From the NCBI GenBank assembly GCA_963717115.1, contig CAVQVO010000002.1:640497-704496 (forward strand): a stretch of DNA of 64,000 bases, given 5' to 3'. Source of the DNA: an uncultured Acidimicrobiales bacterium (lineage in GTDB: Bacteria; Actinomycetota; Acidimicrobiia; Acidimicrobiales; SZUA-35). Below, piece after piece: positions 10,075-47,848 of the stretch. The notes beneath the pieces were generated by a model that was not told the origin of the DNA, did no database searches, and worked only from the letters and a program-made list of their open reading frames with translations. The translations under genes were made by a program, and so were the position numbers. The number at the start of each line of letters is the position of its first letter. Positions within the stretch are counted from its first letter, which is position 1.

Positions 10075-10075
10075 G

Positions 10076-23540: not shown

Positions 23541-24845
23541 TCACCGAACGGTCGCCTCGACCGGCAGCGTGGCGACGCCGTTGACGAAGTTGGACCGCAC
23601 GTAGGCGACCGGACCGGTCGACACCAGCTCGATCCGCCGTTCGTGCAGGCCCTCGAGCAACAGGGCGAGCTCCAAACGGGCCAGTGAGGCGCCCAGGCAG
23701 AAATGGGCGCCGCCTCCGCCGAAGGCCACGCTGGCCGGCACCTTGGGACGGGCGAGGTCGACTCGGAGCGGTCGGTCGAAGACCGACTCGTCGAAGTTGG
23801 CCGCGGCGTACCACATCACGACCTTGTCGCCGGCTCGGACGGTGGTTCCCGCCAGCTCGGTGTCGCGGGTCGCCGTGCGCCGGAAGTACAGGATCGGCGA
23901 ACTGAACCGGACGACCTCGTCGGCTGCGGCCTCGAGCAGCGTCGCACGATCGCCGCCGGTCTCGGGATCGGCGAGGCGACGGCCCAGGCGATCGAACTCG
24001 TCGCCGAACTCGATGCGCTGCAGCGCCAGGTGGGCCATGGCCGAGCGGGTCGTCTCGTTGCCGGCGAAGATCATGAGTTGGAAGAACCGGGCGAACTCGG
24101 TCTCGTCGAGGCGATCGCCGTCGATCTCGGCGAAGGCCAGCTTGGTCAGCAGGTCGTCGCCGGGATCGGCCAGCACTCGGGCCCGGGCCTTCCTGGCGTA
24201 GTCCTCGATCCCCCACGCCGCAGGACTGTTGAACGGCAGCTCGCGCAGCGGAGCGGTGTTGCCGTAGGCATGGGGGTCGAGCGTCGAACCCGAGGTCCCC
24301 TCGACCAGGTGGTCCGACAGCTCGATCATGAGCCGGTGGTCGGCCTCGGGAACACCGAGGATGTCGCAGATCACCCCGATCGGGATGGGCGCCGCGACGG
24401 TGTCGACCCAGTCGCCGCCTCCGGCATCGGTCAGTCGGTCGAGCGCTCCGTCGATCCGCTTCTTCGCTGCTTCGCGGTAGCCCATGACGTGTCGAGGCGT
24501 GAAGGCGGCGCTGACGAGGCGCCGCAACCGGGTGTGCATCGGCGGGTCGAGGTCGATCATCGACGCCCGGGCGTCGCGGACGTCGTCGTCGATGTCGTAG
24601 ATCTGGATGTGGCCGACCTCGGAGGAGTAGGTGTCGGTGTCCCGGGAGACCGCGACGACGTCGGCGTGACGGACCACCGACCAGAATCCGCGGCCGTGCG
24701 GGCCGTCGGGGTTGGGTACCAGCCCGGGCCGTTCGCGCAGCTCGGCGAAGACGGCGTGGGGGATCCCGCGGTCGTACAGGCCGGGATCGGCCAGATCGAC
24801 TCCGAGCCCGTCGGGATGTGTGGTCGATGGCGCGGTGGGATTCAT
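23541..24845 (-). CDS. cytochrome P450 (CYP124/125/142-like clan), P450-3
   Basis: This is a 434-aa ORF. The heme loop is FGGGGAHFCLGASLAR, the I-helix is IFAGNETT and the ExxR is DEVVRF. Its ATG overlaps the upstream stop (ATGA). Confidence 0.95.
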   Translation of the reverse strand: MNPTAPSTTHPDGLGVDLADPGLYDRGIPHAVFAELRERPGLVPNPDGPHGRGFWSVVRHADVVAVSRDTDTYSSEVGHIQIYDIDDDVRDARASMIDLDPPMHTRLRRLVSAAFTPRHVMGYREAAKKRIDGALDRLTDAGGGDWVDTVAAPIPIGVICDILGVPEADHRLMIELSDHLVEGTSGSTLDPHAYGNTAPLRELPFNSPAAWGIEDYARKARARVLADPGDDLLTKLAFAEIDGDRLDETEFARFFQLMIFAGNETTRSAMAHLALQRIEFGDEFDRLGRRLADPETGGDRATLLEAAADEVVRFSSPILYFRRTATRDTELAGTTVRAGDKVVMWYAAANFDESVFDRPLRVDLARPKVPASVAFGGGGAHFCLGASLARLELALLLEGLHERRIELVSTGPVAYVRSNFVNGVATLPVEATVR

Positions 24846-26195
24846 GTCGGGTGCTCCTCGGGCCGGGGAGGCTCGATCGACGACGCAGGGTCGGGGCGGG
24901 GAACGACGACCTCACCGGCGACCAGGTCGATGACCTGACGCTGGGCGAGCGAGCCGCCGAGCTCGGGCAATCGGGGGGCCAATGACCGGAGCATCGCCAC
25001 GCCGGTGCCGTCGCTCGACCCGCCGAGCAGCAGGAGGGCCTCGGTCAGCGGTTCGACGACCTCGACGAAGAGCCGATCGTTCTCGGAGCCCGGTGGGCGG
25101 TGGGCGACGGTCTGGGTGGCGCGCCAGGCATCACCGAGTGCGGGATCGCTCCGTGCCGCCAGGGCGGCGTGCAGATCGAGGAAGCCGCAGGTGTGGCGGG
25201 CCGCCGCCCGGTGCCAGGCGTCGACCACCGGCCCCCATCGCTCGCCGACATCGACGTTGCCGACCTCGAGCCGCACCAGCAACGAGGTGAGATCGGCCAG
25301 GGTGAAGGGTCGGGATGGGTCGATCGGGAGCAGATCGGCGACGGCGAGCGCCTCGTCGACGCGCCCGTCGGCGACCAGTCGGATCCCCCGGTGCCACCAC
25401 AGGTGGGCCGCCAGCAGATCCTGGCGGGGCCACGAACCGTCGGGGTCGAGGAGTTCGTAGAGCGCCGCGGACCGGCCCTGCATCTCGTGGACGTGCGCGG
25501 CGGCGTGCCGAGCCCACAGATCGTCGGCGTTGATCTCGAGCGCCCGGTTCGCCGCCTGGAGCGCCTCGTCGTGGCGACCCACCTCTTCCCAGGCGAAGGC
25601 CAACTGGCCGAGGACGTGCCCGTGAGCGGCCTCGTCGGGCTCGAAGCTCGTCGTCGCCCGGCGACTCGAGACCAGACGGGAGCGGTCGTCACCGATGTGC
25701 AGGTAGACGTCGTGGGCGAAGCGGATGGCCGCCAGGTCTCGGGGCCGGCGGTCGATGACCTGCTCCCAGGCCGCCGCCGCCCGGGAGAACTCCCCGGCGG
25801 CCAGCAGGCGGACGGCGGTGACGTGCCCGGCCTCGCGGTCGGCGACGGTCGTCGGGGGACTCGAGCGATGCCAGGTCGGCGACGATGGTCTCGTGATCGC
25901 TCGGTTGGCCGGCGAGCACGAGCGCCGTGATGCGGAACACCCGACCGAGCACGAACCGGGGATCGGCGTCGATGGCCGGGCCGAGACGACCCAGCGGATC
26001 GCCGACGAACGCCAGGTAGTCGTCGTAGGCCCGGTTCCAGGCCTCGATCGACGAGGGCGAGCCGTCGATCGGCACGTCCCAGCGGTCGAGCCCGGCCGTC
26101 GACGGGAGGGTGGTCGAGGGGAGGGTGGTCGAGGGGAGGGTGGTCGGTGCCGGGAGGGTTGGGGCCGCGGGGAGGTGGCCGGGCTGATTCGTCAT
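24842..26195 (-). pseudogene. tetratricopeptide-repeat (TPR) protein translationally coupled to P450-3; one +1 frame disruption
   Basis: The N-terminal part (MTNQPGHLP...ADLASLESP, ATG 26195, RBS GAGGAG) and the C-terminal part (TTVADREAGHVTAVRLLAAGEF...) are in different frames. They join at a C5/G5 run at 25855-25859. The span is 1354 nt, which is 3n+1. It contains a coding 3 x 15-bp repeat (TTLPS x3) at 26104-26148. Confidence 0.7.
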
Positions 26196-32710: not shown

Positions 32711-33496
32711 TCAGTGACGCTGCCAGCCGGGCTTGTTGTCGAGCGTCTCGCGGTAGTAGTCGGCGTACGTGAGCGCGGCGGCGGCCGGCTCGTCGACGAT
32801 CACGGTGACGTGCGGGTGCCACTGGAGCGCCGACGCCGGGACCATGGCGGTGACCGGGCCCTCGACGGCCCGGGCGATCGGATCGGCCTTCGCTGCGCCG
32901 GTGGCGATCAGCACCAGATGACGGGCATCGAGGATGGTCGCGATGCCCTGGGTCAACACGTGGCGGGGGACGGCCTCGACGTCGCCACCGAAGAACCGGG
33001 CGTTCGCGGCGCGGGTCGTTCCGGTGAGGGTCTTGATCCGCGTTCGCGAGGCCAGCGACGAAGACGGCTCGTTGAAGGCGATGTGGCCGTCGCCCCCGAT
33101 CCCGAGGATCTGCAGATCGATGCCACCGGCGTCACGGATCAGGGCCTCGTAGCGGGGCCCGGCAGTGGCCACCGATGACGACGAGCCGTCGGGTCCGTGG
33201 AGGGCCCCGGCCGGCAGATCGACGTGGGAGGTGAACTCGCGTTCGATGAAGCGCCGGTAGCGCTGGGGATGGTCGTCGGCGAGACCGACGTACTCGTCGA
33301 GCAGGAAGGCCGTGGCGGCCGCGAAGCTGATCGCTCCGGCTTCGTGGCGGGCGACCAGCTCTCGGTAGGTCGGGAGCGGTGAGCTCCCGGTGGCGAGCCC
33401 CAACACCGCTTCGGGCCGCTCGGCCAACAGCGACGCCACCGCGTCGGCGGCGACCACGGCGGCGGCCCGGGGCGAGTCGACGATCACGACCTCCAT
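32711..33496 (-). CDS. nagB: glucosamine-6-phosphate deaminase
   Basis: The start is MEVVIVDS. The motifs present are GLATGSSP, FLLDEYVGL and LGIGGDGHIAFNEP. Its ATG overlaps the nagA stop (ATGA at 33496). Confidence 0.92.
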   Translation of the reverse strand: MEVVIVDSPRAAAVVAADAVASLLAERPEAVLGLATGSSPLPTYRELVARHEAGAISFAAATAFLLDEYVGLADDHPQRYRRFIEREFTSHVDLPAGALHGPDGSSSSVATAGPRYEALIRDAGGIDLQILGIGGDGHIAFNEPSSSLASRTRIKTLTGTTRAANARFFGGDVEAVPRHVLTQGIATILDARHLVLIATGAAKADPIARAVEGPVTAMVPASALQWHPHVTVIVDEPAAAALTYADYYRETLDNKPGWQRH

Positions 33497-34713
33497 CAGA
33501 CCCCCTCGGCGAGGGAGCGGCCCCACTCGGTCGACAGCCGGCTGCGGCCCTCGGCCGAGACGAACGACAGCCGCCCGGCACAGAAGGTCGCGACCACACC
33601 CAGTCGGTCGTCGAGCACGACGATGTCGGCGATCGAACCGACGTCGAGGCGCCCCCGGCCCAGGGCACCGATGAGGTCGGCCGGCGTGGCAGTCGCCGCC
33701 GTGATGGCGTCGGCCGGTTCACAGCCGGTGAAACGCACGGTGTTGCGCACGGCCTGGTCCATCGTGAGGAGGCTGCCGGCGAGCGTGCCGTCGGGTTGGC
33801 GAACGCTCACGCCGTCGGCGACGATCGTGCGTCGCCCGAGATCGAACGAACCAGCGGGCCGGCCCATGGGCGCCACGGCGTCGGTCACCAACGCCAGACC
33901 GTTCGGACCCTTGGCCTTCCAGGCGAGCTTCACCACGGCCGGATCGACGTGCACGCCGTCGACGATGATGCCGGCGACGAGATCGGGCTCGGCCAGGGCG
34001 TGGGCCAGCAGCGGCGGCGAGCGATGGGTCAGCGGGTCCATGGCGTTGAAGAGATGGGTGACCATGCGAGCCCCGACCGCCGAGGCCTGCCGAGCATCGT
34101 CGGCATCGGCCGCGGTGTGGCCGCAGCTCACCGTGACGCCGCGGCGAACCAGTTCGGCGATGATCTCGATGGCCCCGGGGAGTTCGGGGGCGATGGTCAC
34201 GAGTCGCACCCCGCGTTCGGGGGTCCAGCCCTCGATCACCGAGCTCGACGGCGTGAGCAACGAGGCCGCCGGGTGGGCGCCCTTGCGGGCGGGGCTCAGC
34301 ATCGGGCCCTCGAAGTGGAGTCCGAGCGGCTCGGCTCCGAGCGACGAAGCAGGCCGGTTCCTCCACGCCGCCAGCGCGGCGTCGGTGGACCGTCGGGGTG
34401 CGGTGATGATGGTCGGGAGGAAGGCGGTGACGCCGTGCTCGGGGAGGCGCTCGGCGAGGGCCCACATCGAATCGGGATCGCCGAGGAGGTCGAACCCGAA
34501 CCCACCGTTGATCTGCAGATCGACGAAACCCGGGGCCACGGTCAGTCCGGTGGCGTCGAACCACCCGGTGGTCGGCCCCCGATCGACGCTGCCGGTGTCG
34601 ACCGGCCGCGCCGGGCGGGCAACGATCCGGTCGCCGTCGACCACCAGATCATCGGGGGTCGAGCGACCCCCGGTGACGATGGTCCCCCCGACGATTCTCA
34701 CAGCAGGCATCAT
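33496..34713 (-). CDS. nagA: N-acetylglucosamine-6-phosphate deacetylase
   Basis: This is a 405-aa ORF with the motifs PGFVDLQINGGFG, HFEGP, CGHTAA, THLFNAM and DGVH. Confidence 0.92.
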   Translation of the reverse strand: MMPAVRIVGGTIVTGGRSTPDDLVVDGDRIVARPARPVDTGSVDRGPTTGWFDATGLTVAPGFVDLQINGGFGFDLLGDPDSMWALAERLPEHGVTAFLPTIITAPRRSTDAALAAWRNRPASSLGAEPLGLHFEGPMLSPARKGAHPAASLLTPSSSVIEGWTPERGVRLVTIAPELPGAIEIIAELVRRGVTVSCGHTAADADDARQASAVGARMVTHLFNAMDPLTHRSPPLLAHALAEPDLVAGIIVDGVHVDPAVVKLAWKAKGPNGLALVTDAVAPMGRPAGSFDLGRRTIVADGVSVRQPDGTLAGSLLTMDQAVRNTVRFTGCEPADAITAATATPADLIGALGRGRLDVGSIADIVVLDDRLGVVATFCAGRLSFVSAEGRSRLSTEWGRSLAEGV

Positions 34714-35541: not shown

Positions 35542-35812
35542 GTTGATCTTCCTCCACTGCCCACGGGATGTTCCGGTCCGGCCTCGTTGACCGAATCCAC
35601 TGCTCGGGGTCGCACGCTCGACACGGACAGTGAGACCTGTAGTCAACTCTGCACCGACGGCGATCGAAACCTCGACCCGAAGAGTAGTCACCCGACGTCT
35701 CTGCGTCGGCGATCCCCGCCCACCAGGGCAGAGTCACCCGCCCGAACCTCGACCGCCTCGACCCGGTGGTCTCGGGATCACGACGGCGATCCCGGCTGCC
35801 GCGATCCGCGAA

Positions 35813-35848
35813 CCCCGACCCCGACCCCGACCCCGACCTCGACCCCGA
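35813..35848. repeat. hexanucleotide microsatellite (CCCCGA)4-CCTCGA-CCCCGA in the 472-bp intergenic region upstream of the kinase operon
   Basis: I read this directly. The track ORF 35766..35948 is simply its (PD)n translation. Confidence 0.9.
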
Positions 35849-36013
35849 CATGGCATTGCCGGGCACGGCTCGGAATGCGACACTTTCCCTGACGGTCGTG
35901 GTCGGAGTCCACGCCGTCGGAGCGAGCCGAGCCCAGGCCGGCCGCTGAGACGGTGGACTGCGTCGCCCCGATCTCACCGGTCCGGGTCTGTGCCCGACGG
36001 AGGGAGCGAGCAC

Positions 36014-37737
36014 ATGGTGGGGGTCGACGTCGGGATCGGAGGCATCTCCGAGGCAACCGAGATCGGCCGCGGCGGATTCGGCGTCGTGTATCGAGCCCGT
36101 GAGGCCGACCTCGGCCGCACCGTCGCCGTCAAGGTGCTCCACGGCGGCCTCGACGAACCGCGCCGAGGCCGCTTCGACCGGGAGCGCCACGCCATGGGCT
36201 CCCTCTCCGGTCACCCGCACATCGTCACCGTGTTCCGAACCGGGTTCTGCCAGAGCGGTCGACCCTTCCTCGTGATGGAGTACCTCGAGGGCGGATCGCT
36301 CGCCGATCACCTCGAGCGCTTCGGTCCCCTGCCCTGGCGCGAGGTCGGGCGGCTGGGTGTCGAGATCGCCGACGCCCTGGCCCGGGCCCACGAGGCCGGG
36401 GTCCTGCATCGCGACCTCAAACCGGCCAACATCCTCCGGACGGCCACCGGTGTCGCCAAACTCGGCGACTTCGGTATCGCCCGGGTCGACGGCGCACCCG
36501 AGACCACCAGTTCGGTGATCACGGCGAGTCTCGCCCATGCCCCTCCGGAGGTCCTCGCCGGGGTCCGACCCGATGAGCGGGCCGACATCTATTCCCTGGC
36601 TTCGACCCTGTACGAGCTCGCGACCGGAGCGTCGGCCTTCGCGGCGAGCGGCGAGGACTCGATCCTGCCGATGTTGTCCCGCATCGCCCAACAGAGCCCG
36701 GCCCCCCTCGCCTCCACCGGGATGCCGGCCGCCATGGCCGACACGATCCTCCGGGCCATGGCGAAAGCGGCCGACGAACGACAACCCAGTGCGGCATCGT
36801 TCCGAGACGAGCTGGCTGCCGCCATGGCATCCGACTCGGCCCCGAGCGGAGTCGAGCCCGCCCACCAGGCACCCCCGGCGAACGCCACGCAGGCGATCGC
36901 CTCGTTCGCCGGCCCCGGAACGGGCCAACCCCTGCCGACGACCGCAACCCCGCTCGGCCCGGCGACGCCGGCCGGGCCGCCCGGCCTCGATGGCCGGCCG
37001 GGAGCGGCGCCCGATCCCAGGTCGACGTCGCAGGCCGGGCGACGTCGATTGGTCTGGTCGGCCTCGGGCGCAGCGGCGGCGGTCGTCGTCGTGCTCGTCG
37101 CCGTGTTCGCCCTGTCATCGCGCGACGAGGGGAGCGCCGCCCCGGATCCCACCGAACCGCACCCGCCGAATCCATCGTCACCGTCGAACAACCGACCGAG
37201 ACCACGATCCCCACCACAGCGACCTCGGCCGACACGACGACCCAGCCGACGACACTCCCGACGGCGGCCTCGCCCCCACCCTCGCAGACCGCCGCCAGCG
37301 ACGACGGGTCGATCCAGCTCCTGGCACCGGCCGACTGGACCGAACGGGCCTCGCTCCCGGGTGCCCTGCTCGTCACCGACGACCTCGACGGGGCCTTGGC
37401 CGACGAGTGGGTCGAGCTCGTGCTGGCCACCGTGGTCTGGAACACCCCCGAACTCAATCCCGGGGGCTTCGCTCCCGACGCGGCGCTCGATGCGCAGATC
37501 GCCGAGAGCGAATGTGCGTTTCGCGAACGCGGCCCGTATCAGGACTTCGCCTACGGCGGCTCGTACGTGGTCCTCGATCGCTGTGGCCCCCGAGCGCTCT
37601 CGGTCTACATCGTGAACGCCGCACCGTTCGACCTGTCCAGCGTGGTCAACGTGATCATCGCCTACCAGCCGGCCGACGAGGCGACCGTCATCCCCTTGAT
37701 CATGAACAGCCTCTTCTTCGATCCCGGTCGGCTCTGA
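36014..37737 (+). pseudogene. receptor-type Ser/Thr protein kinase (Hanks kinase, TM helix and unknown extracellular domain), STPK-1; one frame disruption
   Basis: The ATG at 36014 follows GGAGGGAG. The kinase motifs are GRGGFGVVY, VAVKVL, HRDLKPANIL, DFGIAR and APPE. The TM helix is AAAAVVVVLVAVFAL. After about 37150 the plausible protein continues in another frame (APAESIVTVEQPTETT...DGSIQLLAPADW...SLFFDPGRL, stop 37737). The track frame becomes Arg/Pro junk at that point. The span is 1724 nt, which is 3n+2. Confidence 0.85.
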
Positions 37738-37738
37738 C

Positions 37739-39339
37739 ATGCCGCCCACCCACGATCCCAATCAGACGATGGCCATCGGCGCCCCGTCGGCCGTGACCGG
37801 CGATGGCGACCTCGACGACCGGCTCCTCTCGACCGAGGTCTGGACCGACGACATGGTCGCCCGGCAGGGCATACCCGTCGTCGACACACCGATCGCCACC
37901 ATCGGTGGGGGTCTCGGATCGTTCGCCTTCGTCGACACGCTCCGGATCGCCGGCGTTCCCGCCAACGCGATCAGCGTGCTGGCCGACGGTGACCTCCCCG
38001 AACGGACCTACCGTTACCTGGCGACGAACTCGCAGATCCCCGACGTCGAGCGACTTCGGTCCGACGCCGGTTCGACGATCGACAACATCTGGGGATTCCC
38101 GAGCTATGCGTTCCGGGAGGCGGCTTCCGCCCGTGGCCTCGGCCCGCGGCTGGCGCCGCTCTGGTCGGTGTTCAGCGAACCGTTCGGGGCCGACTACTAC
38201 ACGCCCCGAGCCGGCGACGTCTACCGGTCCGTCACCCGCGAGTCCGAGCGGATCGGGTGGTCCTCGATGCGACGACGCGGTGCCGTCCGGGTGGTCCGTC
38301 GCCGCAGTGGCGGCGGCTACTTCTCGATCCTGACGCCGCCCCCTGCCGAGGGCGGACCCAAACGCGTCGCCTACCGCAGCCGCGTCGCCCACCTCGCCGT
38401 CGGGTATCCGGGAGTGAAGTTCCTACCGGATCTCCAGGCGTATCGAGAACGACACCGCGAACTTCAGTCGCGTGGTCAACGCCTACGAACCCCACGAACA
38501 CGTCTACCAGGAACTGCGGCGTCGACCCAGTGTCGTGATGGTTCGCGGCAGCGGCATCGTGGCCTCCCGGATCCTGCAGCGTCTCCTCGACGATCGGGAA
38601 TCCAACGGTGCCCAGACCACGGTTCTCCACCTGTTCCGCAGCTACGTGGCCGGCCCGCAGGGCGACTCGATCACCTCCCGCCGTCCCGGCGGCCAACGGG
38701 TGGGCCTACCAGGCCTTCAACTTTCCGAAAGCGGCATGGGGCGGCCAACTCAAGGAGCGACTCGAAGGTCTCGACGGCCCGGGCCGCGTGGCCCTGCTGA
38801 AGACCATGGGTGGAACCAACACACCGCCCCGACGCTCGTGGCGCGAGCAGCTCGAGCGGGGACGACGAGGCGGCTGGTACCAGCAGTACGTGGGCGCCGT
38901 CACCTCCGTCGAACCGGGCCCGGACCAGAGCGTGCTCACCACGATCGACGGGCCGGATGGCCGACGCTACGACCTCGCGGCGAACTTCGTCATCGACGCC
39001 ACCGGGCTCGAGTCCGATATCGGCGAGCACCGGCTGTTGGCCGATCTGTTGCAGCACGGCGGTGCCCAGCGGTCCGACTTCGGACGGCTCGACGTCGGTC
39101 CGACGTTCGAGGTGCTCGGCACCCGGAGCGATCCGGGCCGGTTGTACGCCAGCGGTTCCATCACCCTCGGCGGCCACTACGCCGGTGTGGACTCCTTCCT
39201 CGGTCTGCAGTACGCCGCCCTGCGAATCGCCGACGACCTGGCCGACCTCGGGACGATCCCGAGAATCGGTGTCGGTCGATCGATTTCGGAATGGTGGCGC
39301 TGGTACCGGAACGTGCCGCCCCGGGGAGCGAGCCGATGA
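37739..39339 (+). pseudogene. two-dinucleotide-binding-domain flavoprotein (FAD/NAD(P)H oxidoreductase or monooxygenase-like), family unknown; two +1 frame disruptions
   Basis: The gene is spread over three frames. These are 37739 to about 38450 (IATIGGGLGSFAFVD, a GxGxxG-type motif), about 38450 to about 38680 (VVMVRGSGIVASRILQRLL, a second Rossmann motif) and about 38680 to 39339 (NGWAYQAFNFPKAAWGGQL...FVIDATGLESD). The span is 1601 nt, which is 3n+2. It starts 2 nt after the STPK-1 stop. Confidence 0.65.
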
Positions 39340-39761
39340 CCCCGACGCTCTTGGGTCGGCTGCAGACCCGGTTCTTCTTGCTCGTCACCGTCGGGCTGGC
39401 CTGGACCCTGCTCGTCACACCCCTCCTCCCTCGCGACGGTGCCGGACTCAGCGAGTCGTTCGGCCTGACCCTGACCGCGTTGGCCACCGTCACCGTGATC
39501 GGTCTGGTCGGGTGGGAGCCGATCTACCACCTGCTCCAACAGATCCGGTGGGAGAAGGATTGGCCGACGGGGCTCGGCCTGGTCACCGGCCTGCCCGAGG
39601 GACTCGTGACCTATCTCGTCCTCGCCGCCGAGCGTGACGTGCCCGTTGCTGCGTTCGTCATCCATTTCTCGACGACCTGGCTCGTCGTGTGGCTCGCCGT
39701 CCACGGTCCTCTCCGGATCGTGCTGCTTCGCTGGAGGTACCGCGGTGGCCGAATCCTCTGA
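39336..39761 (+). CDS. small integral membrane protein (about 4 TM), unknown function
   Basis: This is a 141-aa in-frame segment of ORF 38472..39761 starting at MTPTLLGRLQTRFFLLVTVGLAW. Its ATG overlaps the previous stop (ATGA). Several hydrophobic spans are present. Confidence 0.6.
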   Translation: MTPTLLGRLQTRFFLLVTVGLAWTLLVTPLLPRDGAGLSESFGLTLTALATVTVIGLVGWEPIYHLLQQIRWEKDWPTGLGLVTGLPEGLVTYLVLAAERDVPVAAFVIHFSTTWLVVWLAVHGPLRIVLLRWRYRGGRIL

Positions 39762-40991
39762 GCGGCCCGTCGGCTTCGGGGCGACGATCGAGGAACTCAT
39801 CGCCGAGAGCCGATCGGCGAGGTCCGACGTCGCCCGCAACCGGTTTCGTCGGAGTCTGGCCGTCTCGCTCGCCGTCACCGTCACCTGGCTCCTCTCCGTC
39901 ACGGCCACCGGACAGTGGAACCGGATCCTCGACCACTGGGTCGCGGCGGTGACCATGGTCTTCGGGAGCCTCGTCGCCGGAGCCACACCCCAGGGTGGCG
40001 GCGCCGTGGCCTTCCCGGTCTTCACGAAGGGGCTCGACGTTCCAACCGAGGTGGCGCGGCAGCTTCTCGCTCTGTATCCAGACCGTGGGCATGGGATGCG
40101 CATCGGCGTCGATCGTCATCAACCGACGGATCGTCGAATGGCGTGCGGTCGCCGTGGGCGGGGGCATCGCCAGTCTGACGTTCGTCGTTGCGCTCCTCAC
40201 GCTCGGGCGATCCCGATCGACCGTTCTGGCCGATCGATCTCCCCGGTCCGTACGTGAAGGTCACCTTCACGCTGATCCTGTGTGCCATGGCCTGGGTCGT
40301 GTACCTCGGTCAGCGGATTCCGATCCGGCCGGTGAGCGACGAGCTCCCCCCGATGAACCGACGGCTGTGGGCTGCGCTCGTCGTCGCCGGTGCCGTCGGC
40401 GGGGTTTCGGCGGCGCTGGTCGGATCGGGCGTCGACGTCATGGTCTACCTCTTCGTCGTGGTGCTGTTCGGGGTTCGGGCCGGCGTCGGTGTGCCGACGA
40501 GCGTGCTGGCCATGGCCATGGTCTCGGCCGTCGGTTTCGTGGTACTCGGCCTGGTCGACGGCCAGTTCCTCATCGACCGGGCCGCCGACGGATCGGTGGT
40601 CGCGGTTGGCGGGCACGCGATCGTTCCCCCCGGCTCGGCGCGCCAGGTCGACCTGTTCGGCATGTGGTTGGCAGCCGCCCCGATCGTCGCCTGGGGCGCC
40701 CCGATCGGATCGCTCCTCGCTGCGCGGCTGTCCCCACGGGCGCTGATCCGGCTCGTGATCGGCCTGGCGACCGCCGAGGTCCTGAGCACCATCGTCTTCC
40801 TCGACGAGCTGCGAACCGACCCCCGCCTCGCCGCGTTCGCCGGTGTCGGGCTCGTCGTCGGCGTCGGAGGTCTCACCTGGGTCGCCCATCACCGCTTGCG
40901 CCTGTTCGGACTGCCGAGCCTGCCACGAGGGGCCCTGCTCACCAGGGCCAGTGTCGAGGTCTCGGCCGACTACGGAGACGACATCCGATGA
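39745..40991 (+). pseudogene. TauE/SafE (DUF81) family anion exporter-like membrane protein; two +1 frame disruptions
   Basis: The GTG at 39745 lies 8 nt after GGAGG. The first frame reads GATPQGGGAVAFPVFTKGLDVPTEVAR. The second frame, from about 40061, reads SFSLCIQTVGMGCASASIV. The third frame, from about 40206, reads DPDRPFWPIDLPGPYVKVTFTLILCAM...GSGVDVMVYLFVVVLFG. The span is 1247 nt, which is 3n+2. Confidence 0.72.
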
Positions 40992-41788
40992 CCGGTATCG
41001 CCGACTACGAATTCCTCGAACGATTGGGCGAGGGCAACCACGGCGAGTTCTGGCTCGCCGTTCCGCCACCCCGGCTCGGGCTCGACCCCGGGCGAAGAGT
41101 GGCGGTCAAGACCCTGGCGCAGCGGGCATCCGAGGCCGACTTCGGCCGTATGGCCAACGAACTGCGCATCTACGCAGGGGTCGATTCACCGGCGCTGACC
41201 CCCATCATCGACGCCGGTCATCAGAACGGTCGGCTCTTCTACGCCATGCCCCACTACCCCGATGGATCGCTGGCGTCGCCGGCCCGTCCGCTCGATCGGC
41301 GCGAGATCCGCCAAGCCGTCGCCCGTGCCGCCCGTGCCGCGCACGCCCTGCACGAGGCCGGTGTGGCGCACCGAGACATCAAGCCCTCGAACATCCTGCT
41401 CGATCGTGGAGTCGGCTACCTGTCCGACCTCGGGCTCGCCCAGATCATCCACCCCGGACAGACCGTCACCGGAATCGGACCGGTCGGCACCATCGAGTTC
41501 CTCTCCCCCGAGGTGGTCCGGGGGGAGCGGGCCTCACGGGCTTCGGACGTCTGGGCATTGGGTGTGACCCTGCATCATCAGCTCAGTGCCCGCCCGCTCT
41601 ACCCGACCCTCGAACGCCGCTCGTTGCTCGATGCGCTCCGCCAGGTCCTCGACACCATGCCCGTCGTCGATCCCGACCTCGCCGACGGCGAACGGGCGGT
41701 GATCGAACGGTGCCTCATGGCCGAACCGGCCCACCGCTACGGGCGAGCCGACGAACTGGCCGCCGCGATCGAAGGACTGGACCCATGA
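40988..41788 (+). CDS. soluble Ser/Thr protein kinase domain protein, STPK-2 (DLG variant of DFG)
   Basis: The start MTGIADYEFLERLGEGNHGEFW overlaps the previous stop (ATGA). The motifs present are VAVKTL, HRDIKPSNILL, SDLGLA and LSPE. There is no TM segment. Confidence 0.88.
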   Translation: MTGIADYEFLERLGEGNHGEFWLAVPPPRLGLDPGRRVAVKTLAQRASEADFGRMANELRIYAGVDSPALTPIIDAGHQNGRLFYAMPHYPDGSLASPARPLDRREIRQAVARAARAAHALHEAGVAHRDIKPSNILLDRGVGYLSDLGLAQIIHPGQTVTGIGPVGTIEFLSPEVVRGERASRASDVWALGVTLHHQLSARPLYPTLERRSLLDALRQVLDTMPVVDPDLADGERAVIERCLMAEPAHRYGRADELAAAIEGLDP

Positions 41789-42898
41789 ACGATCCCCGTC
41801 GGGTCATCGTCGTCCCCGCCGAGTCCGACGGGCCGGGTGGCCTCGTCGTGCGGTGGCGCAGCGGCACGGTCGTGATCGGTGGAACGCCGACCGAGCGCAA
41901 TGCCACCTTCGCCCGGTTGTTCGGATCCGAACCGTTCGACGAGGCCTCGACCCAGCCGCCCACGCATCACGAGCCGCCGGCCGAAGCCCTGGTCGAACGG
42001 ATCGACCAGCTCGGTGTCGCCGGCGTCGATCTCGCCGCCGGGATCGAGACCCCGGCCGGGCTCCGGCTCCTGCGGTCCGGCGCCGGCCGAATCACCGGCC
42101 TCGACCCCGCCCGACCCGACACCGCAGGCGCGGGAGGCGTCGAACCCGAGGCGACCGTCTGGCTCGGGATCGGACCGGCGCCGGCTCGGGTCGACGGGCG
42201 CCTGGCCCCCGATTCCCCAGAACGCTGGCATGCACTCGAGCTGGGCATCGTTCCCGGACGCGGAGTCCTGCTCGCCGCCGTGGCCCCGGCGCAACCGGCC
42301 CCGGTGCAACCCGCCGACGGATTCGACGTCGTCGATCTCACCGGCGGGCAAGGTCCCAGGGCGTCCCGCTCGCCGCTGCCGGTCCAGGAGTCGCCCGCGG
42401 GAGGCGCCGGACCTCGAATCGGCTCGACCGCCGACCTCGTCCACGGGATCGAGTGCCAGCGCCGACACTTCAACAATCCCCACGCGGCCTACTGCCAGCA
42501 CTGCGGGATCTCGATGGTGCAGCTCACCCATCATCTTGTCGAGCGACCCCGGCCGACGATGGGGTTCCTCGTGTTCGACCGCGGGATGACCTACGCGCTC
42601 GACCGCCGCTACCTGATCGGCCGCGAGCCGACCCCAGAGCCGGCTTCCCCGTTCGAGCCGCTGGCCGTCGACGACGCCGATCACACGGTGTCGCGGCGAA
42701 CACGCCGAACTGGACTTCGACGGTTGGGACGTGACGCTCACCGACCTCGGCTCGACCAACGGAACGTTCCGCTGGGATACGGACGATCAGCGCTGGGACC
42801 GCGTGCTCCCGAACCAGACCGTGGTCCTGCAGCCCGGAACGCCCGTCGCGCTCGGTCGCGTCACCTTCGTCTTCGAGACCGTCGCCCGTTCGACCTGA
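41785..42898 (+). pseudogene. zinc-ribbon plus FHA domain protein with an uncharacterised N-terminal region; one +1 frame disruption
   Basis: The ATG overlaps the STPK-2 stop (ATGA). A CxxxH...CxxC zinc-ribbon-like segment is present (IECQRRHFNNPHAAYCQHCG). The FHA core is split at about 42699. One frame reads YLIGREP...DHTVSRR and the next reads HAELDFDGWDVTLTDLGSTNGTF...VALGRVTFVFE. The span is 1114 nt, which is 3n+1. Confidence 0.8.
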
Positions 42899-42985
42899 CG
42901 GCGAACGCCCGGCGCCACGGTCACGGCGTTGCTCGCGCACACCGGCGAGTCTTGCTAGCGTCGGAGGTCCAGGAGGCAAACATCG

Positions 42986-43459
42986 ATGGCGATCGGTCGC
43001 CCCACATCGGACCGGAGGGGTGACGACGCCTCCTTCGTCATGACCGGCGACGCGCCGCGACTCCGGCGATCCCCCGTCGGGCCCCGCTGGGAGTGGATGG
43101 TGGGGCCGCTCGTCGGCATCGTGGTCGTCGCGGTGACGGTCATCGGCATCACCCGGGCCGGTTCCGGCGGGTCGGCCGACGTTCCGAGTATCGCCATCGA
43201 CTGTCCGACGTCGGTCGCCATCGACGAACGGCTGACCTGCACCATCGCCACCGACAACGTCGTGTCCGGGAGCTGGGATCTGCCGGGATTCCTCGCCGGG
43301 CCGCTCCAGCTCGACACCGTCAACGACGACAACCCGATCTACGTCGAGCCGACCAATCCCGATGTGGCCGGCCAGACCTTCACGATCACCGCGACCGCCG
43401 TCACCGACGACGGTCGATCGGTGACCGCACGACATTCCTTCGAGGTCCGAGCCGACTGA
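42986..43459 (+). CDS. single-pass membrane protein with a small beta-rich ectodomain, unknown function
   Basis: This is a 157-aa ORF with an AGGAGG RBS. The TM helix is WMVGPLVGIVVVAVTVIGI. It is the last gene of the kinase cluster. Confidence 0.55.
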   Translation: MAIGRPTSDRRGDDASFVMTGDAPRLRRSPVGPRWEWMVGPLVGIVVVAVTVIGITRAGSGGSADVPSIAIDCPTSVAIDERLTCTIATDNVVSGSWDLPGFLAGPLQLDTVNDDNPIYVEPTNPDVAGQTFTITATAVTDDGRSVTARHSFEVRAD

Positions 43460-43522
43460 TGACGAGTTCGACGAAACGAGACCTGGGCGCGTTCGACGAC
43501 CCGGGGTCAGGGGTCGTGCGTC

Positions 43523-45643
43523 TCAGAGCCGGGCGACGATGATGGCAACGTCGTCGAGGTGGCCGGCGACGTCGGCGAAGTCGGCGAGGAGCCGATCGGC
43601 GATCGTCGCGACCGGTTCGGTACGAATCGCACCGAAGAACTGCGCCAGGCGATCGATGTCGACGTCGAGGGCGTCGACGCGGGACTCGACCAACCCGTCG
43701 GTGAACAACAGCAGCGTCGAGCCCGGTTCGTAGGGCTCGGATCGCACGGCCGTCGCCGGGCCGGCGACGCCGAGCCAGGGGCGCAGACTCCCTCGGAGCG
43801 AGACGACCTCGCCTCGAGCGGAGGCGATGAGCGGTGGCGGATGGCCGGCCAGGACCGTGGTGAGGGTCCGACGGCCGACGTCGACGACGGTGACGGCCAC
43901 GGTGGCGAGCGCCTTGGACTCGTGGTTCGACAGCAGTCGCTCGGCCTGCTCGTAGAGGAGCGCCGGATCGGTGTCGAGTTGGACCAACGCCGAGATCACG
44001 GTTCGCACGCGGGCCATCCGGGCGGCGGCCTCGGGGTCGTGACCGACCACGTCGCCGACCACGAAGGCCGTCCGCTCGTCGTCGATCCGCACCACGTCGT
44101 ACCAGTCACCGCCGAAACCGAGCGCCGTGGCGGCCGGCTCGTACCGTACGGCGATGTCGACGCCCGGGATGGTCGGGGCCGGGCTCAACAGCGTTCGTTG
44201 CAGGGCATGGACCAGGGTCGACCGATCGGCGGTGATCCGCGCCCGTTCGATGGCCTGACCGACGATCCGACCGAGGGTGAGCAACTGGAACATCGGGAAG
44301 CCGGCCGAGGTCAGCGGTCGGTCCCAACCGACCACCATCACGCCGACCACCTCGCCGTGCGCCGTCCACAGGGGAATCGCCGCCGAGGCGACGACCCCGA
44401 CGGCATCGGCCTGGGCCACCGAGTCGGGATAGTCGCGAGCCCGTTGCGCCCGGTCGGCCACCAACACCGGCGTTCCGGTCCGAAAGGCCACCGTGTAGGG
44501 CGCCTCGGTCCCCGACTCGAGATTCGACTCGAGCAACTCACGGGCCTGGCGGTTGCCCCCGAGGAGGCTGGCTCGCTGGGTCGGCTCGTCGTAGAGGCCG
44601 GCGATCGCCACGGTGGCCTCGAGATAGTCGGGGCCGCCGGTGGCGATCACCCGGGCGACGTCGTCGACGGTCTCGGCCGATCCGAGCTGGGCGGCGAGAT
44701 CGGCGAGCACCTCGGACCGCCGGCGCGACCGTGCCCGTTCGGTGATGTCGGCGACGATCATGCCGACCCGGGTCGGGAGTCCGACGAGGTCGATCGGGAA
44801 GTAGGTGGCCGACCAGGTCTTGTCGATGCCGGGCTCGGCCCCGGTCCGACCGGCGATCTCGACCCCGACGACCGGCTCACCGTGATCGAGGACCCGGCGG
44901 ACCAGGGGCTCGATGTCGCTGGCCAGATCCGGGATCACCTGGTCGATCGTCCGGCCGTGATGGTCGGTGACCGGGACGCCGTTGATGTCGGCCATCGCCT
45001 GGTTGACCATCTCGAATCGCAGCGTGTCGTCGACGAGGGCGAAGCCCAGCGGGGCCTCGGCGAGCACGGCCTGGAGCAGGGCCTCGGACCGAGTGGCCGC
45101 AGCCGCCGTCTGGCGGGCCCGGATCTCGTCGGCGGCGATGTCGGCGAGTTCATGGAGGATCTGGGCGTCCGAGGATGACCAGCGCCGGGGGACCGTGTCG
45201 ACCACACAGACCGTTCCGAGCACCAGCCCGCTCTCGGACCGCAGCGGCACACCGGCCCAGGCCCGAACCCCCATCGACTCGATCGACGGGTTGGAGCTGG
45301 TCCGTTCGTCCTGCGTGGCGTCGTCGACCAGGAACGCCTCGTCGGTGCCGATCACGTACTGGCAGAACGACTCACCGACCGGGTTCTGACGCACACGCCC
45401 GGCGCCGGGCTCGAGGCCGACGGAAGCCTTCCAGAACGAGCGCCGGTCGTCGACGACGGTGATGAACCCGAAGGGTGTGGACAGGAGTCGAGACGCCAAC
45501 GAGGCGATGCGATCGAAACCGGTCTCGGGAACGGTGTCGAGCAGGCCCGACAGGGTGACGGCCTCGAGTCGCCGGGCGTCGTCGACCCGGCTCGCGACCA
45601 GCTCGGCGAAGGTACGTCCCAGCTCGGTCGAGGCGATGTCCAC
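43523..45643 (-). CDS. GAF-PAS-GAF sensor fused to a PP2C/SpoIIE-type Ser/Thr phosphatase
   Basis: This is a 706-aa intact ORF. The N-terminal GAF region includes ESFCQYV...AWAGVPL, followed by a PAS-like middle. The C-terminal PP2C region reads GGDWYDV...VVGDVVGHD...LLLFTDGLVE. Confidence 0.9.
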   Translation of the reverse strand: MDIASTELGRTFAELVASRVDDARRLEAVTLSGLLDTVPETGFDRIASLASRLLSTPFGFITVVDDRRSFWKASVGLEPGAGRVRQNPVGESFCQYVIGTDEAFLVDDATQDERTSSNPSIESMGVRAWAGVPLRSESGLVLGTVCVVDTVPRRWSSSDAQILHELADIAADEIRARQTAAAATRSEALLQAVLAEAPLGFALVDDTLRFEMVNQAMADINGVPVTDHHGRTIDQVIPDLASDIEPLVRRVLDHGEPVVGVEIAGRTGAEPGIDKTWSATYFPIDLVGLPTRVGMIVADITERARSRRRSEVLADLAAQLGSAETVDDVARVIATGGPDYLEATVAIAGLYDEPTQRASLLGGNRQARELLESNLESGTEAPYTVAFRTGTPVLVADRAQRARDYPDSVAQADAVGVVASAAIPLWTAHGEVVGVMVVGWDRPLTSAGFPMFQLLTLGRIVGQAIERARITADRSTLVHALQRTLLSPAPTIPGVDIAVRYEPAATALGFGGDWYDVVRIDDERTAFVVGDVVGHDPEAAARMARVRTVISALVQLDTDPALLYEQAERLLSNHESKALATVAVTVVDVGRRTLTTVLAGHPPPLIASARGEVVSLRGSLRPWLGVAGPATAVRSEPYEPGSTLLLFTDGLVESRVDALDVDIDRLAQFFGAIRTEPVATIADRLLADFADVAGHLDDVAIIVARL

Positions 45644-45795: not shown

Positions 45796-47643
45796 ATGAA
45801 CAGTCCTTCCAACCTGCAACACGAAGAACTCCGATCCTGGGTCGCCGAGATGGTCGAACTCTGCCAGCCCGACGACGTCCACTGGTGCGACGGCAGCGAC
45901 GAGGAGTACCAGCGCCTCACCGAAGAGCTGGTCGAGGCCGGCACCTTCATCAAGCTCGACGAGGCGCTCCGACCCGGCAGCTTCCTCGCCCGTTCCGACC
46001 CCAGCGACGTCGCCCGGGTCGAGGACCGCACGTTCATCTGCAGCCGCACGGCCCAGGGGGCCGGACCGACGAACAACTGGATGGACCCCGCCGAGATGAA
46101 GGAGATCCTGCAAGGTCTCTTCGCCGGGTCGATGAAGGGTCGCACGATGTACGTGATCCCCTTCAGCATGGGTCCGCTCGGTTCGCCGATCGCGCAGATC
46201 GGCGTCGAGATCACCGACTCGGCCTACGTCGCGGTGAACATGAAACTGATGACCCGGATGGGCTCGAAGGCGCTCGACGTCCTCGGCACCGATGGGGAGT
46301 TCGTGCCGTGCATGCACACCGTCGGAGCCCCCCTGGCTCCCGGCGACACCGACGTGCCCTGGCCGTGCAACCCCGACGTCAAGTACATCGTCCACTTCCC
46401 CGAGGAACGCTCGATCTGGTCCTACGGCAGCGGCTACGGCGGCAACGCCCTCCTCGGCAAGAAGTGCCTGGCTCTGCGGATCGCGTCGACCATGGGCCGA
46501 GACGACGGTTGGCTGGCCGAGCACATGCTGATCATGGGCGTCACCGAACCGAGCGGGCAGAAGACCTTCGTGGCCGCCGCGTTCCCGAGCGCCTGCGGGA
46601 AGACCAACTTCGCCATGCTCGAGCCCCCCGAGGCCTTCGCCGCCGAAGGCTGGAAGATCGAGACCGTCGGCGACGACATCGCCTGGATCAAGCCCGGGGC
46701 CGACGGCAAGCTGTACGCGATCAATCCCGAGGCCGGCTACTTCGGGGTCGCCCCGGGAACCTCGCGAGCGACCAATCCGAGCGCCATGGTCACCGTGGAG
46801 TCGAACTCGATCTTCACCAACGTGGCGTTGACCGATGACGGCGATGTGTGGTGGGAGGGCATGGACGGCGACCCGCCGGCCCACGCCATCGACTGGCAGG
46901 GCAACGACTGGACGCCCGAGTCGGGCACCAAGGCCGCACACCCGAACTCCCGGTTCACGGCGCCCGCCGCCCAGAATCCGGTGGTCGACCCGGCCTGGGA
47001 CGACCCCAAGGGCGTCCCGATCTCGGCGTTCATCTTCGGCGGTCGTCGATCCGACACCCTGCCGCTGGTGCATCAGTCGTTCAACTGGGCCCACGGCGTC
47101 TATCTGGCCGCCACCATGGGATCCGAGACCACCGCCGCCGCCTTCGGCCAGCAGGGCGTGGTGCGACGAGACCCCTTCGCCATGCTGCCCTTCGCCGGCT
47201 ACCACATGGGCGACTACTTCAACCACTGGCTGTCGTTCGGTCGGAAGATCCACAACCCGCCCCGCATCTTCGGGGTGAACTGGTTCCGCCGCAACGCCGA
47301 CGGCGACTTCGCCTGGCCCGGGTTCGGCGAGAACATGCGGGTGCTGCAGTGGATCGTCGAACGGTCGCAAGGCAGGGCCTACGCCGTCGAGAGCCCGATC
47401 GGCTGGATGCCGCGCCACCAGGACCTGAACTGGAAGGGGCTCGAGGACTTCTCCGAAGCCGACTTCCGCCAGGCGATGTCACTCGACCGTGAGGACTGGG
47501 ACAGGGAGATCCTGGCTCACGACGAGCTGTTCATCCGGCTCAACGACCGGATTCCCAAAGAGATGCTCGCCATCCGCGAGCTCACCCTGTCGGCACTGTG
47601 GCGTTCGCCCGAGCACTGGGAGATGAATCCCGACCCGACCTGA
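45796..47643 (+). CDS. pckG: phosphoenolpyruvate carboxykinase (GTP)
   Basis: This is a 615-aa ORF with the motifs [20 protein letters not shown] and NWF. It is unmistakably of the GTP-PEPCK type. Confidence 0.97.
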
Positions 47644-47711: not shown

Positions 47712-47848
47712 AATCGAAGAACCTGCGGGGTTGGGTGGAAGTCCCGACCGGCGGTGAGAGCCCGCGAGCCCTTCGCCTTTTCGGTGATCGGCCGACCCGG
47801 TGGAATTCCGGGGCCGACGGTGAGAGTCCGGATGGGAGCAGGATGATG
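47712..47848 (+). ncRNA. FMN riboswitch (RFN element) controlling the rib operon
   Basis: The conserved RFN core reads GCGGGGTTGGGTGGAAGTCCCGACCGGCGGTGAGAGCCCGCGAGCC ... GGTGGAATTCCGGGGCCGACGGTGAGAGTCCGGATGGGAGCAGG. P1 pairs CCTGC (47722) with GCAGG (47838). It lies immediately upstream of ribD. Confidence 0.9.

Follow-up and report, generated by a model that had tools for sequence, protein, structure and literature searches.

A conserved, mainly actinobacterial operon that associates a predicted membrane-docked flavoenzyme with a kinase and an FHA reader

Hanks-type kinases and forkhead-associated (FHA) proteins are abundant in Actinomycetota. To our knowledge, apart from GarA/OdhI and the cell-wall machinery, only a few enzymes have been identified in Actinomycetota as direct targets of these proteins. 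GarA and OdhI, of Mycobacterium and Corynebacterium, are about 140–160 amino acids (aa) long, with a short phosphorylatable N-terminal tail, and their targets are tricarboxylic acid cycle and glutamate enzymes encoded elsewhere. Here, we describe an operon found in a stretch of 64,000 nucleotides from an uncultured Acidimicrobiales bacterium (contig CAVQVO010000002.1, positions 640,497 to 704,496; this whole stretch is called the window below), in which a flavoprotein is encoded with a small membrane protein (SMP), a TauE/SafE (TSUP) transporter, two Ser/Thr kinases (STPK1 and STPK2), an FHA protein, and a single-pass membrane protein. As in the GarA/OdhI systems, which are controlled by PknB/PknG, a stand-alone actinobacterial FHA protein appears to link a Hanks kinase to an enzyme. 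However, the adaptor here is about 360–440 aa long, has an extra folded N-terminal domain and a zinc knuckle, and is encoded beside its presumed target. The sequences and models suggest that the operon is an FHA- and kinase-regulated enzyme module centered on a flavoprotein from a new, deep branch within the class B flavoprotein fold. We lean slightly towards the reading that this conserved, mainly actinobacterial operon encodes a membrane-docked FAD/NAD(P)H enzyme gated by a dedicated phosphothreonine switch.

The combination of a zinc ribbon with an FHA domain is shared with ArnA of Sulfolobus/Saccharolobus, an FHA regulator (PMC10470591). ArnA is controlled by Hanks-type kinases. It differs in being archaeal, in having a vWA partner, and in regulating motility and DNA-damage genes with no flavoenzyme involved, and the N-terminal domain of the present protein has no ArnA counterpart. 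An FHA reader attached to the component that it regulates is found in the ABC transporter Rv1747, which is encoded together with the kinase PknF (PMC3138270), and in DgcB, an FHA-GGDEF enzyme (PMC6733907). The same logic, an attached reader combined with a kinase or phosphopeptide switch, is seen in fusions of FHA domains to the flavoprotein, whereas the regulated module here would be a flavoenzyme with a partner of four transmembrane helices, and the reader is a separate protein in Actinomycetota. With the class B N-hydroxylating monooxygenases the flavoprotein has in common a two-Rossmann fold, a GxGxx(G/S) motif, a GxGxxA motif with a following Arg, and an ATG motif. In contrast, it is only 13–16% identical to them, it has large inserts of its own and a Trp-rich C-terminal helix, and it has no siderophore context. 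It also has an obligate membrane partner and is linked or fused to FHA domains, features that we know from no characterized class B N-hydroxylating member. The transporter scores above the Pfam threshold of the TauE/SafE (TSUP) sulfite and organosulfonate exporters, but at about 414 aa and about 11 segments it is larger than the Pfam model of 237 positions, and it has no NCBIfam equivalog. The original prediction made from the DNA letters, that no characterized system has this composition, agrees with the literature searched, which included a recent atlas of bacterial Ser/Thr kinases and excluded most subscription journals, and in which no description of the association of FHA protein, flavoprotein, and SMP was found.

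Conservation was determined in a set of 82 non-redundant loci, which belong to Acidimicrobiia, Thermoleophilia, Nitriliruptoria, Frankia/Parafrankia, and Nocardia; neighbors of the flavoprotein were counted by tblastn with several divergent queries, the FHA protein and the phosphatase within 7 kb. The SMP gene is directly downstream of the flavoprotein gene, on the same strand and with a gap of 0–375 nt, in 82/82 loci. SMP is an obligate partner of the flavoprotein, a weight that it had not been given when the cluster was first described. An FHA protein is near the flavoprotein in 70/71 loci and the short kinase in 64/74, while TauE is present in 43/71, the single-pass protein in 2/40, and a homologue of the convergent phosphatase in 1/41 eligible loci. 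Unbiased clustering of all open reading frames (ORFs) in the 82 loci revealed no further recurrent family, only the kinase, FHA protein, SMP, and TauE. The conserved core is narrower than the seven genes of the window and is centered on the flavoprotein–SMP pair. With dozens of species sharing the gene order, chance falls far short of explaining the arrangement. The proposed check, co-occurrence of these genes as neighbors in related genomes, gave a conserved gene order; because intact orthologous clusters exist, the original prediction, although only partly supported, is not refuted.

Relatives of the flavoprotein were found in at least 474 species-representative genomes in a genome scan, and the best 80 loci belong to Acidimicrobiales, Nitriliruptoraceae, Thermoleophilia, Microthrixaceae, Mycobacteriales, cultured Parafrankia, Frankia, and Nocardia. 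The module in Nocardia consists only of flavoprotein, SMP, and FHA protein, located between nuo and RuBisCO genes, and RefSeq calls both the flavoprotein and SMP of Nocardia 'hypothetical protein'. A minimal trio of the same genes is also found in another locus (L089), the surroundings being unrelated. One typical operon of the actinobacterial type is on a contig labelled 'uncultured Burkholderiales bacterium' (L057, CAYTKN010000006.1), which is probably a mis-binned contig.

Fusions tie the flavoprotein to phosphothreonine signaling independently of synteny. Of 66 full-length diverse representatives, 28 have the flavoprotein joined at its N-terminus to one or two FHA domains, and 1 has it joined to a full kinase domain. 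This kinase is of the canonical DFG type and resembles the upstream receptor kinases more closely than it does the short kinase of the operon. The FHA-fused forms come from Cyanobacteria (Microseira and UBA metagenome-assembled genomes, MAGs) and from Rubricoccus marinus, and they are annotated only as 'FHA domain-containing protein'. Many of the 612 clusters of the family at 50% identity are 620–840 aa long. In one fused locus (L086), the gene is followed by an SMP homologue downstream (34% identity, E = 7e-25), and its surroundings contain a stand-alone FHA protein and kinases. Together with the FHA neighbor (70/71) and the kinase neighbor (64/74), the fusions bear out the proposal that this flavoprotein is tied to Ser/Thr phospho-signaling, and they point to the enzyme as the regulated component.

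The flavoprotein had been described as having GGGLGS, GSGIVAS, and DATG motifs and no named family. All three motifs are present. Searches with the fragments and with the repaired protein gave no Pfam, NCBIfam, PADLOC, or PDB sequence match above threshold, so the absence of a name by sequence holds; even at E ≤ 1, Pfam has no match for the window copy or the orthologues, and a PDB profile search showed only the β-α-β motif of ferredoxin reductases, at E of about 0.7. There are 2,979 homologues at E ≤ 0.001, the best 74% identical; those named among the matches listed are nearly all 'hypothetical', and 0 have a Pfam domain. A profile search of 1.84 billion representatives gave the 612 clusters mentioned above, and the sequence conservation is 58–74% across orders.

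Structure prediction, by contrast with the profile searches, does place the protein. The AlphaFold2 model of an intact orthologue (P0002; pLDDT 81, pTM 0.82) has two β-α-β domains, and the top 50 Foldseek matches in the PDB are all SidA, PvdA, DfoA, putrescine N-hydroxylase, NbtG, DesB, or KtzI, with E from 5e-17 to 2e-14 and TM-scores of 0.55–0.72, although the identity is only 13–16%. The modeled fold is that of the class B N-hydroxylating monooxygenases, of which the flavoprotein would be a distant relative. It would add to this fold a deep unannotated branch of 612 clusters. The protein has two dinucleotide-binding domains. G42, G44, G46, S47, G256, and G258 are invariant in 31 homologues; the GxGxxS, GxGxxA, and DATG motifs and the C-terminal GVDSFLG motif are nearly invariant over the 66 diverse members, as is, family-wide, an Arg after the second β-strand of the second Rossmann domain. 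Because these elements are so well conserved, FAD and NAD(P)H, probably NADPH, are expected to bind. Many other residues are also invariant in the 31 homologues, beyond the cofactor motifs, and the family has its own conserved inserts, ERLRSDSxSxxDNIWGxPxY, QxFNxPKAAWGGQ, and MGGTNTP, in addition to the Trp-rich C-terminal helix. From the fold, we infer that the chemistry is of the monooxygenase type.

The same structural matches to SidA, PvdA, DfoA, NbtG, KtzI, and DesB, together with the DATG motif, would be given by an ordinary siderophore-type N-hydroxylase, acting on ornithine, lysine, or a diamine, which merely chances to adjoin signaling genes. We regard this as very unlikely. The Pfam model of that family, Lys_Orn_oxgnase (PF13434), gives only sub-threshold matches, in 3 of the 66 diverse members (best E 0.054), and the identity to its structurally characterized members is 13–16%; the flavoprotein stays out of this Pfam family because sequence profiles miss it. 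Furthermore, no nonribosomal peptide synthetase (NRPS), NRPS-independent siderophore (NIS) synthetase, acyltransferase, or siderophore transporter recurs in the 82 loci, whereas the association with SMP and the FHA protein is near-universal and extends to fusions.

SMP has four hydrophobic helices and basic termini in the hydropathy and charge analysis, in agreement with the approximately four transmembrane spans first noted. Alignment of the homologues reveals the conserved motifs PTLxGRxQTR, QQFRWEKDWP, and RWRYxGGRxL. Given the four helices and the basic termini, all three motifs should face the cytoplasm, and this predicted topology suits a docking platform for the soluble flavoprotein. 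SMP has no Pfam, NCBIfam, or PADLOC match.

STPK2, the short kinase, carries VAVK, HRDIKPSN, and DLG in the window. The DLG variant of DFG had been noted in this copy, and we find that the replacement of DFG by D-L/I-G characterizes the whole short-kinase family. A residue census of 62 orthologues (loci L001–L085) shows that the ATP-binding Lys and HR are kept in 62, the Asn in 60, the Asp of DLG, which binds metal, in 61, and the Asp of HRD in 44. The other 18 have S, G, A, or N at the position of this last Asp. This minority of short kinases is probably inactive, and the losses suggest repeated drift towards a pseudokinase or scaffold role.

The FHA protein was predicted to be a zinc-ribbon and FHA reader with a long uncharacterized N-terminus, and this description is accurate. 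The AlphaFold2 model (pLDDT 83.5) begins with an N-terminal α/β domain, from which a disordered linker leads to a CHCC zinc knuckle and then to the FHA domain, and the repaired protein matches the Pfam FHA model (PF00498) with 41.8 bits against a cut-off of 20.7. C213, H217, C226, C229, G268, R269, S292, H295, and N314 are invariant in 37 homologues, and among these R269, S292, H295, and N314 are the phosphothreonine-contacting R, S, H, and N of FHA domains. Foldseek matches FhaA, GarA, and OdhI with target-normalized TM-scores of 0.7–0.8, in the FHA part only. The best PDB sequence match to the profile of the protein, ArnA (5a8i, E = 9.6e-9), is likewise confined to the FHA part, as are the matches to the NCBIfam OdhI and FhaB models, at 22–26 bits against cut-offs of 125–200. 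No Pfam, NCBIfam, or PADLOC model beyond the generic FHA domain matches the protein. The fold search assigned no class to the N-terminal domain, which stays unclassified, although confidently modeled, because the FHA domain dominated the fold matches.

The mechanism that we propose has at its core a cytoplasmic flavoenzyme that would form with SMP a membrane-docked complex at the cytoplasmic face and would run an NAD(P)H- and flavin-dependent reaction, monooxygenase-like to judge by the fold. The short D-L-G kinase would write a phosphothreonine mark, or in some lineages may only scaffold, and the zinc-ribbon/FHA adaptor would read this mark, so that a private switch of kinase and FHA protein may control the assembly or activity of the flavoenzyme. 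In other phyla, the FHA domain that is part of the enzyme's own chain would exert the equivalent control. Candidate phospho-acceptors are the TVTG of the kinase activation loop, the invariant Thr4 and Thr11 of SMP, and the flexible conserved TNTP loop of the flavoprotein. The TSUP/TauE transporter, present in about 60% of the loci, probably moves the substrate or product, and an upstream receptor kinase, in about 30%, may add an external input. Neither the phosphatase nor the single-pass protein belongs to the proposed unit, and the particular ectodomain of STPK1 does not either. With more reserve, we suggest that the enzymes could form a new class of membrane-docked flavin monooxygenase or oxidoreductase, wired to phosphothreonine via a D-L-G kinase or pseudokinase and an FHA adaptor in Actinomycetota, and via FHA fusion in Cyanobacteria and Rhodothermia.

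Several observations weigh against the gated membrane-docked flavoenzyme. The identity of 13–16% and the Lys_Orn_oxgnase model that is unmatched above threshold make other chemistry possible, for example that of a quinone or disulfide reductase. The HRD Asp is missing from about 29% of the short-kinase orthologues, and the Frankia and Nocardia loci have no adjacent kinase; thus, phosphotransfer by the short kinase is not essential everywhere. In addition, SMP is not encoded next to the enzyme in one fused cyanobacterial lineage.

The linkage and fusion to signaling domains would fit equally well if the flavoprotein were an input module, that is, a sensor of NAD(P)H, O2, or redox state that uses its flavin and signals through the kinase and FHA protein to distant targets. 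No biosynthetic or catabolic genes are consistently adjacent in the 82 loci, and some of the kinase orthologues are pseudokinase- or scaffold-like, both as this reading would have it. However, FHA domains, as phosphopeptide readers, normally sit on the very component that is regulated, of which Rv1747 (PMC3138270) and DgcB (PMC6733907) are examples. Moreover, a transporter in about 60% of the loci fits a flux of substrate or product, and the many invariant residues outside the cofactor motifs suggest a defined substrate site. On balance, we consider a sensor unlikely, and we retain the gated flavoenzyme as the preferred reading. If it is true, it would represent a new and phylogenetically broad gating of membrane redox chemistry by Ser/Thr phosphorylation. 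The operon is a compact, self-contained case, with enzyme, membrane partner, reader, and writer, and its cultivable hosts include Nocardia and Parafrankia. The identity of the substrate could reveal new flavin chemistry or a membrane process, such as the sulfur-anion handling hinted at by the TSUP partner.

The other genes of the cluster are less constant. The original prediction had a writer, a reader, and an eraser of Ser/Thr phosphorylation flanking a redox enzyme and exporter pair. The kinase and the FHA protein hold up as conserved neighbors and putative writer and reader, but the eraser does not, with 1/41 loci, and the exporter is optional. With the phosphatase in 1/41 loci, the single-pass protein in 2/40, and the STPK1 ectodomain type in 8/82, the writer–reader–eraser picture is a local accident; the phosphatase and the single-pass protein are neighbors outside the conserved unit. 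The TauE assignment is sound, since the repaired protein scores 40.6 bits against a gathering score of 32.6 (Pfam PF01925), compared with 18–33 bits for the fragments alone; the protein has about 11 hydrophobic segments, aligns collinearly with its L002 orthologue in three frames by tblastn, and has homologues named TSUP/TauE/YfcA. It is not a constant partner of the flavoprotein, however, but an optional accessory, frequent at 43/71 loci.

STPK1 consists of a kinase domain, a Pro/Ala-rich linker, one transmembrane helix (residues 349–367), and an unclassified ectodomain, and it aligns collinearly with the L002 orthologue in two frames by tblastn. The ectodomain has no PDB sequence match. This is the receptor kinase with an unknown ectodomain that had been predicted, but it is not conserved as a member of the cluster: 20/67 loci have a kinase gene on the same strand immediately before that of the flavoprotein, and the upstream receptor kinase is an accessory gene. 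The single-pass protein has no Pfam or PDB match. A tblastn of residues 396–567 of the L002 kinase K0 against the window showed that its ectodomain, 43178–43441 (+), is 43–52% identical to the two tandem ectodomain repeats of K0, and it has the look of a kinase sensor domain copied as a separate protein. In the closest relatives, L002 (1769–6250) and L001 (3235–7896), a second phospho-signaling module, which is absent from the window, lies immediately upstream of the operon; it comprises a kinase with a repeat ectodomain, a fusion of an HSP70-like ATPase and an FHA domain (682–690 aa), and a protein of 237–255 aa with no Pfam match.

A kinase paired with an effector enzyme also brings to mind a system for anti-phage defense or conflict. 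The whole module moves together among unrelated chromosomal contexts, and its kinases match defense-kinase models. However, these kinase matches are generic Pkinase similarity, with NCBIfam scores far below the curated family cut-offs, and PADLOC has no match for the flavoprotein, SMP, TauE, or the FHA protein. In addition, ORF clustering of the loci revealed no recurring mobile-element or defense-island genes, and an identity of 58–74% across orders is unlike that of fast-evolving conflict genes. A defense function is, in our opinion, hardly to be expected.

The genes of the window were delimited as follows. The G+C content is about 70% across the window, so raw ORF lists are noisy; a coding track was obtained from periodicity of G+C at third codon positions (GC3) and from codon-usage Viterbi decoding trained on the long ORFs of the window, gene limits from stop-to-stop translations and peptide mapping, and domains from Pfam. 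This gave a plus-strand coding run at 36014–43459 in which frame switches far outnumber gene ends. The seven overlapping same-strand genes and the convergent phosphatase of the original prediction were all recovered (Table 1), with ATGA overlaps at three junctions (39336, 40988, and 41785) and one overlap of 17 nt (39745), which is also present in the intact orthologue L002. The domain calls, Pkinase twice, TauE, FHA, and GAF/PAS/SpoIIE, are backed by Pfam. Only the reported 2-nt gap at 37737/37739 needs correction, as there is actually one intervening base.

The six frame disruptions first noticed in the cluster were confirmed, as tblastn with the L002 proteins and the codon-usage Viterbi decoding place the same six points, in about 7.4 kb and four of the seven genes. 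L002 is an intact orthologous cluster on a short-read SPAdes contig, and its proteins align collinearly. At five of the breaks, deletion of a single base from a short run restores invariant residues. The repair regains family-invariant stretches, for example YRERHRDFSRVVNAY and RRPGANGWAYQ, and the repaired flavoprotein retains 127/127 columns invariant in the 31 homologues, when true homologues miss 0–6 of these 127 in a leave-one-out comparison. The stop-to-stop translations contain no nonsense codons in any fragment, the disrupted genes have no larger deletions, and the codon usage, by the codon model, is intact in each fragment.

The disruptions had been noted inside the cluster. They are not special to it, since there are at least 17 frame errors in the window, patchily distributed and technical in appearance, 14 of the 17 being of the extra-base type. 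The 11 outside the cluster were detected by joining fragments across frames, which gave continuous Pfam domains over the junctions. The densest patch, 8 errors in about 2.6 kb, is in the GH65 and CNNM/CorC genes. For the TPR protein, the stretch from 26191 to 25603 offers no start codon in the downstream frame. Similar breaks at other positions are seen in a related MAG with long-read-style contig names (L001; MFD09964.bin.1.68, contig_26865), with +1 breaks in the flavoprotein at about 9978 (gene 9817–11350) and in the short kinase at about 13584 (gene 13042–13840). As a result, gene callers give a 452-aa flavoprotein and miss the kinase, a caution for users of such MAGs. In the short-read assemblies L002 and L003, the cluster is intact.

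We are fairly confident that the six cluster frameshifts are assembly consensus errors and do not represent decay. In support, an independent short-read run, ERR12037370, contains in its Logan contigs, from the same organism, proteins identical to STPK2, the phosphatase, and the single-pass protein of the window. Other data do not favor this reading. The contigs span none of the frameshift sites, and no read-through copy of the frameshifted genes was found in the searches. No 100%-identical protein was matched by the repaired TauE N-terminus as the query, and no match to a DNA probe over the 40204 junction was found in the JGI metagenomes. Two of the ERR12037370 contigs end at about 42691 and start at about 42880, and the gap between them holds the FHA frameshift site; this could be a coincidence, a variant, or a low-coverage site.

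If the frameshifts are real, this copy is a decaying remnant, and the operon is dead here though functional elsewhere. Six breaks in 7.4 kb and four of seven genes would be in keeping with decay, as would the lack of an intact 100%-identical copy in the searches and the two independent Logan contigs that end before frameshift sites are reached, in one case about 4 nt away from that of the FHA gene. However, ordinary housekeeping-type genes elsewhere in the window (LivM, GH65, and CNNM/CorC) are also hit, with a patch of 8 errors in 2.6 kb that is denser than the cluster. Bacterial mutation leans towards deletions, whereas 14 of the 17 errors are single extra bases. The absence of nonsense codons and larger deletions, the 127/127 invariant residues, the intact codon usage, and the different break sites in the related long-read-style MAG also do not suit decay, which seems to us improbable. 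The organism thus probably has a working operon, the frameshifts being most likely consensus errors. Beyond these probable assembly errors there is nothing special about the window copy, and the operon is a lead for experiments. When dense frameshifts are seen in a high-G+C MAG, the whole window should be checked before pseudogenization is called.

Table 1. Genes of the cluster, the convergent phosphatase, and the frame errors located in the window.
Feature	Position	Strand	Details
STPK1, receptor Ser/Thr kinase	36014–37737	+	Pfam Pkinase, E = 7e-42
STPK1 break	~37155–37193		Low-complexity linker; missing base, repair adds one base
Flavoprotein, ~532 aa after repair	37739–39339	+	GGGLGS, GSGIVAS, DATG motifs
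Flavoprotein break	38460–61 (AA)		Extra base
Flavoprotein break	38690–92 (GG)		Extra base
SMP, 141-aa membrane protein with four transmembrane helices	39336–39761	+	Intact in window
TauE/SafE (TSUP) transporter, ~414 aa	39745–40991	+	Pfam TauE
TauE break	40058–60 (GG)		Extra base
TauE break	40204–08 (GGG)		Extra base
STPK2, short soluble Hanks-type kinase, 266 aa	40988–41788	+	Pfam Pkinase (PF00069), E = 1e-33; intact
FHA adaptor protein, ~370 aa	41785–42898	+	Pfam FHA
FHA protein break	42695–97 (GG)		Extra base, inside the phosphothreonine-binding loop, between VSR and xHAEL
Single-pass membrane protein, 157 aa	42986–43459	+	Transmembrane helix at residues 38–56
GAF-PAS-GAF-SpoIIE (PP2C-fold) phosphatase, 706 aa, convergent	43523–45643	−	Pfam SpoIIE (PF07228), E = 6e-39; GAF; PAS_4
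LivM-type branched-chain amino-acid ABC permease	12809–14661	−	2 errors, ~14095 and ~13812; BPD_transp_2 continuous after joining
TPR-repeat protein	24842–26190	−	1 error near 25845
GH65 glycoside phosphorylase	within 54788–59000	−	3 errors, ~56917, ~56611, and ~56430
CNNM(DUF21)-CBS-CorC_HlyC protein, adjoins GH65	within 54788–59000	−	~5 errors between 58900 and 57990

A promoter and terminator scan of the cluster gave nothing above chance. The 456 nt upstream of STPK1 (35551–36006) are without coding signal in the codon model; their translation contains PDPDPD/PRPRPR-like repeats, and a promoter-like site was not found in this segment. Further upstream, in place of the second phospho-signaling module of L001 and L002, is an amidohydrolase-like gene, 33496–34713 (−). 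A suspected in-frame stop at 34735 is merely the boundary between two minus-strand genes, the lower of which is this one, and a suspected frameshift at about 2796 proved to be a normal boundary between a MarR-like gene and an aldehyde dehydrogenase gene. The LivM-type permease runs into a LivG-like ATPase. ARAGORN reports a 98-nt tRNA-Arg(GCG) at 57867–57964 (+), on the opposite strand of the CorC coding region, which is probably a false positive. An FMN riboswitch (RF00050) at 47717–47847 (+) scores 110.6 bits against a gathering score of 66.2. It is just preceded by a gene for a GTP-type phosphoenolpyruvate carboxykinase (45796–47643), and downstream of it is a plus-strand operon (47921–53288) that is probably for riboflavin biosynthesis.

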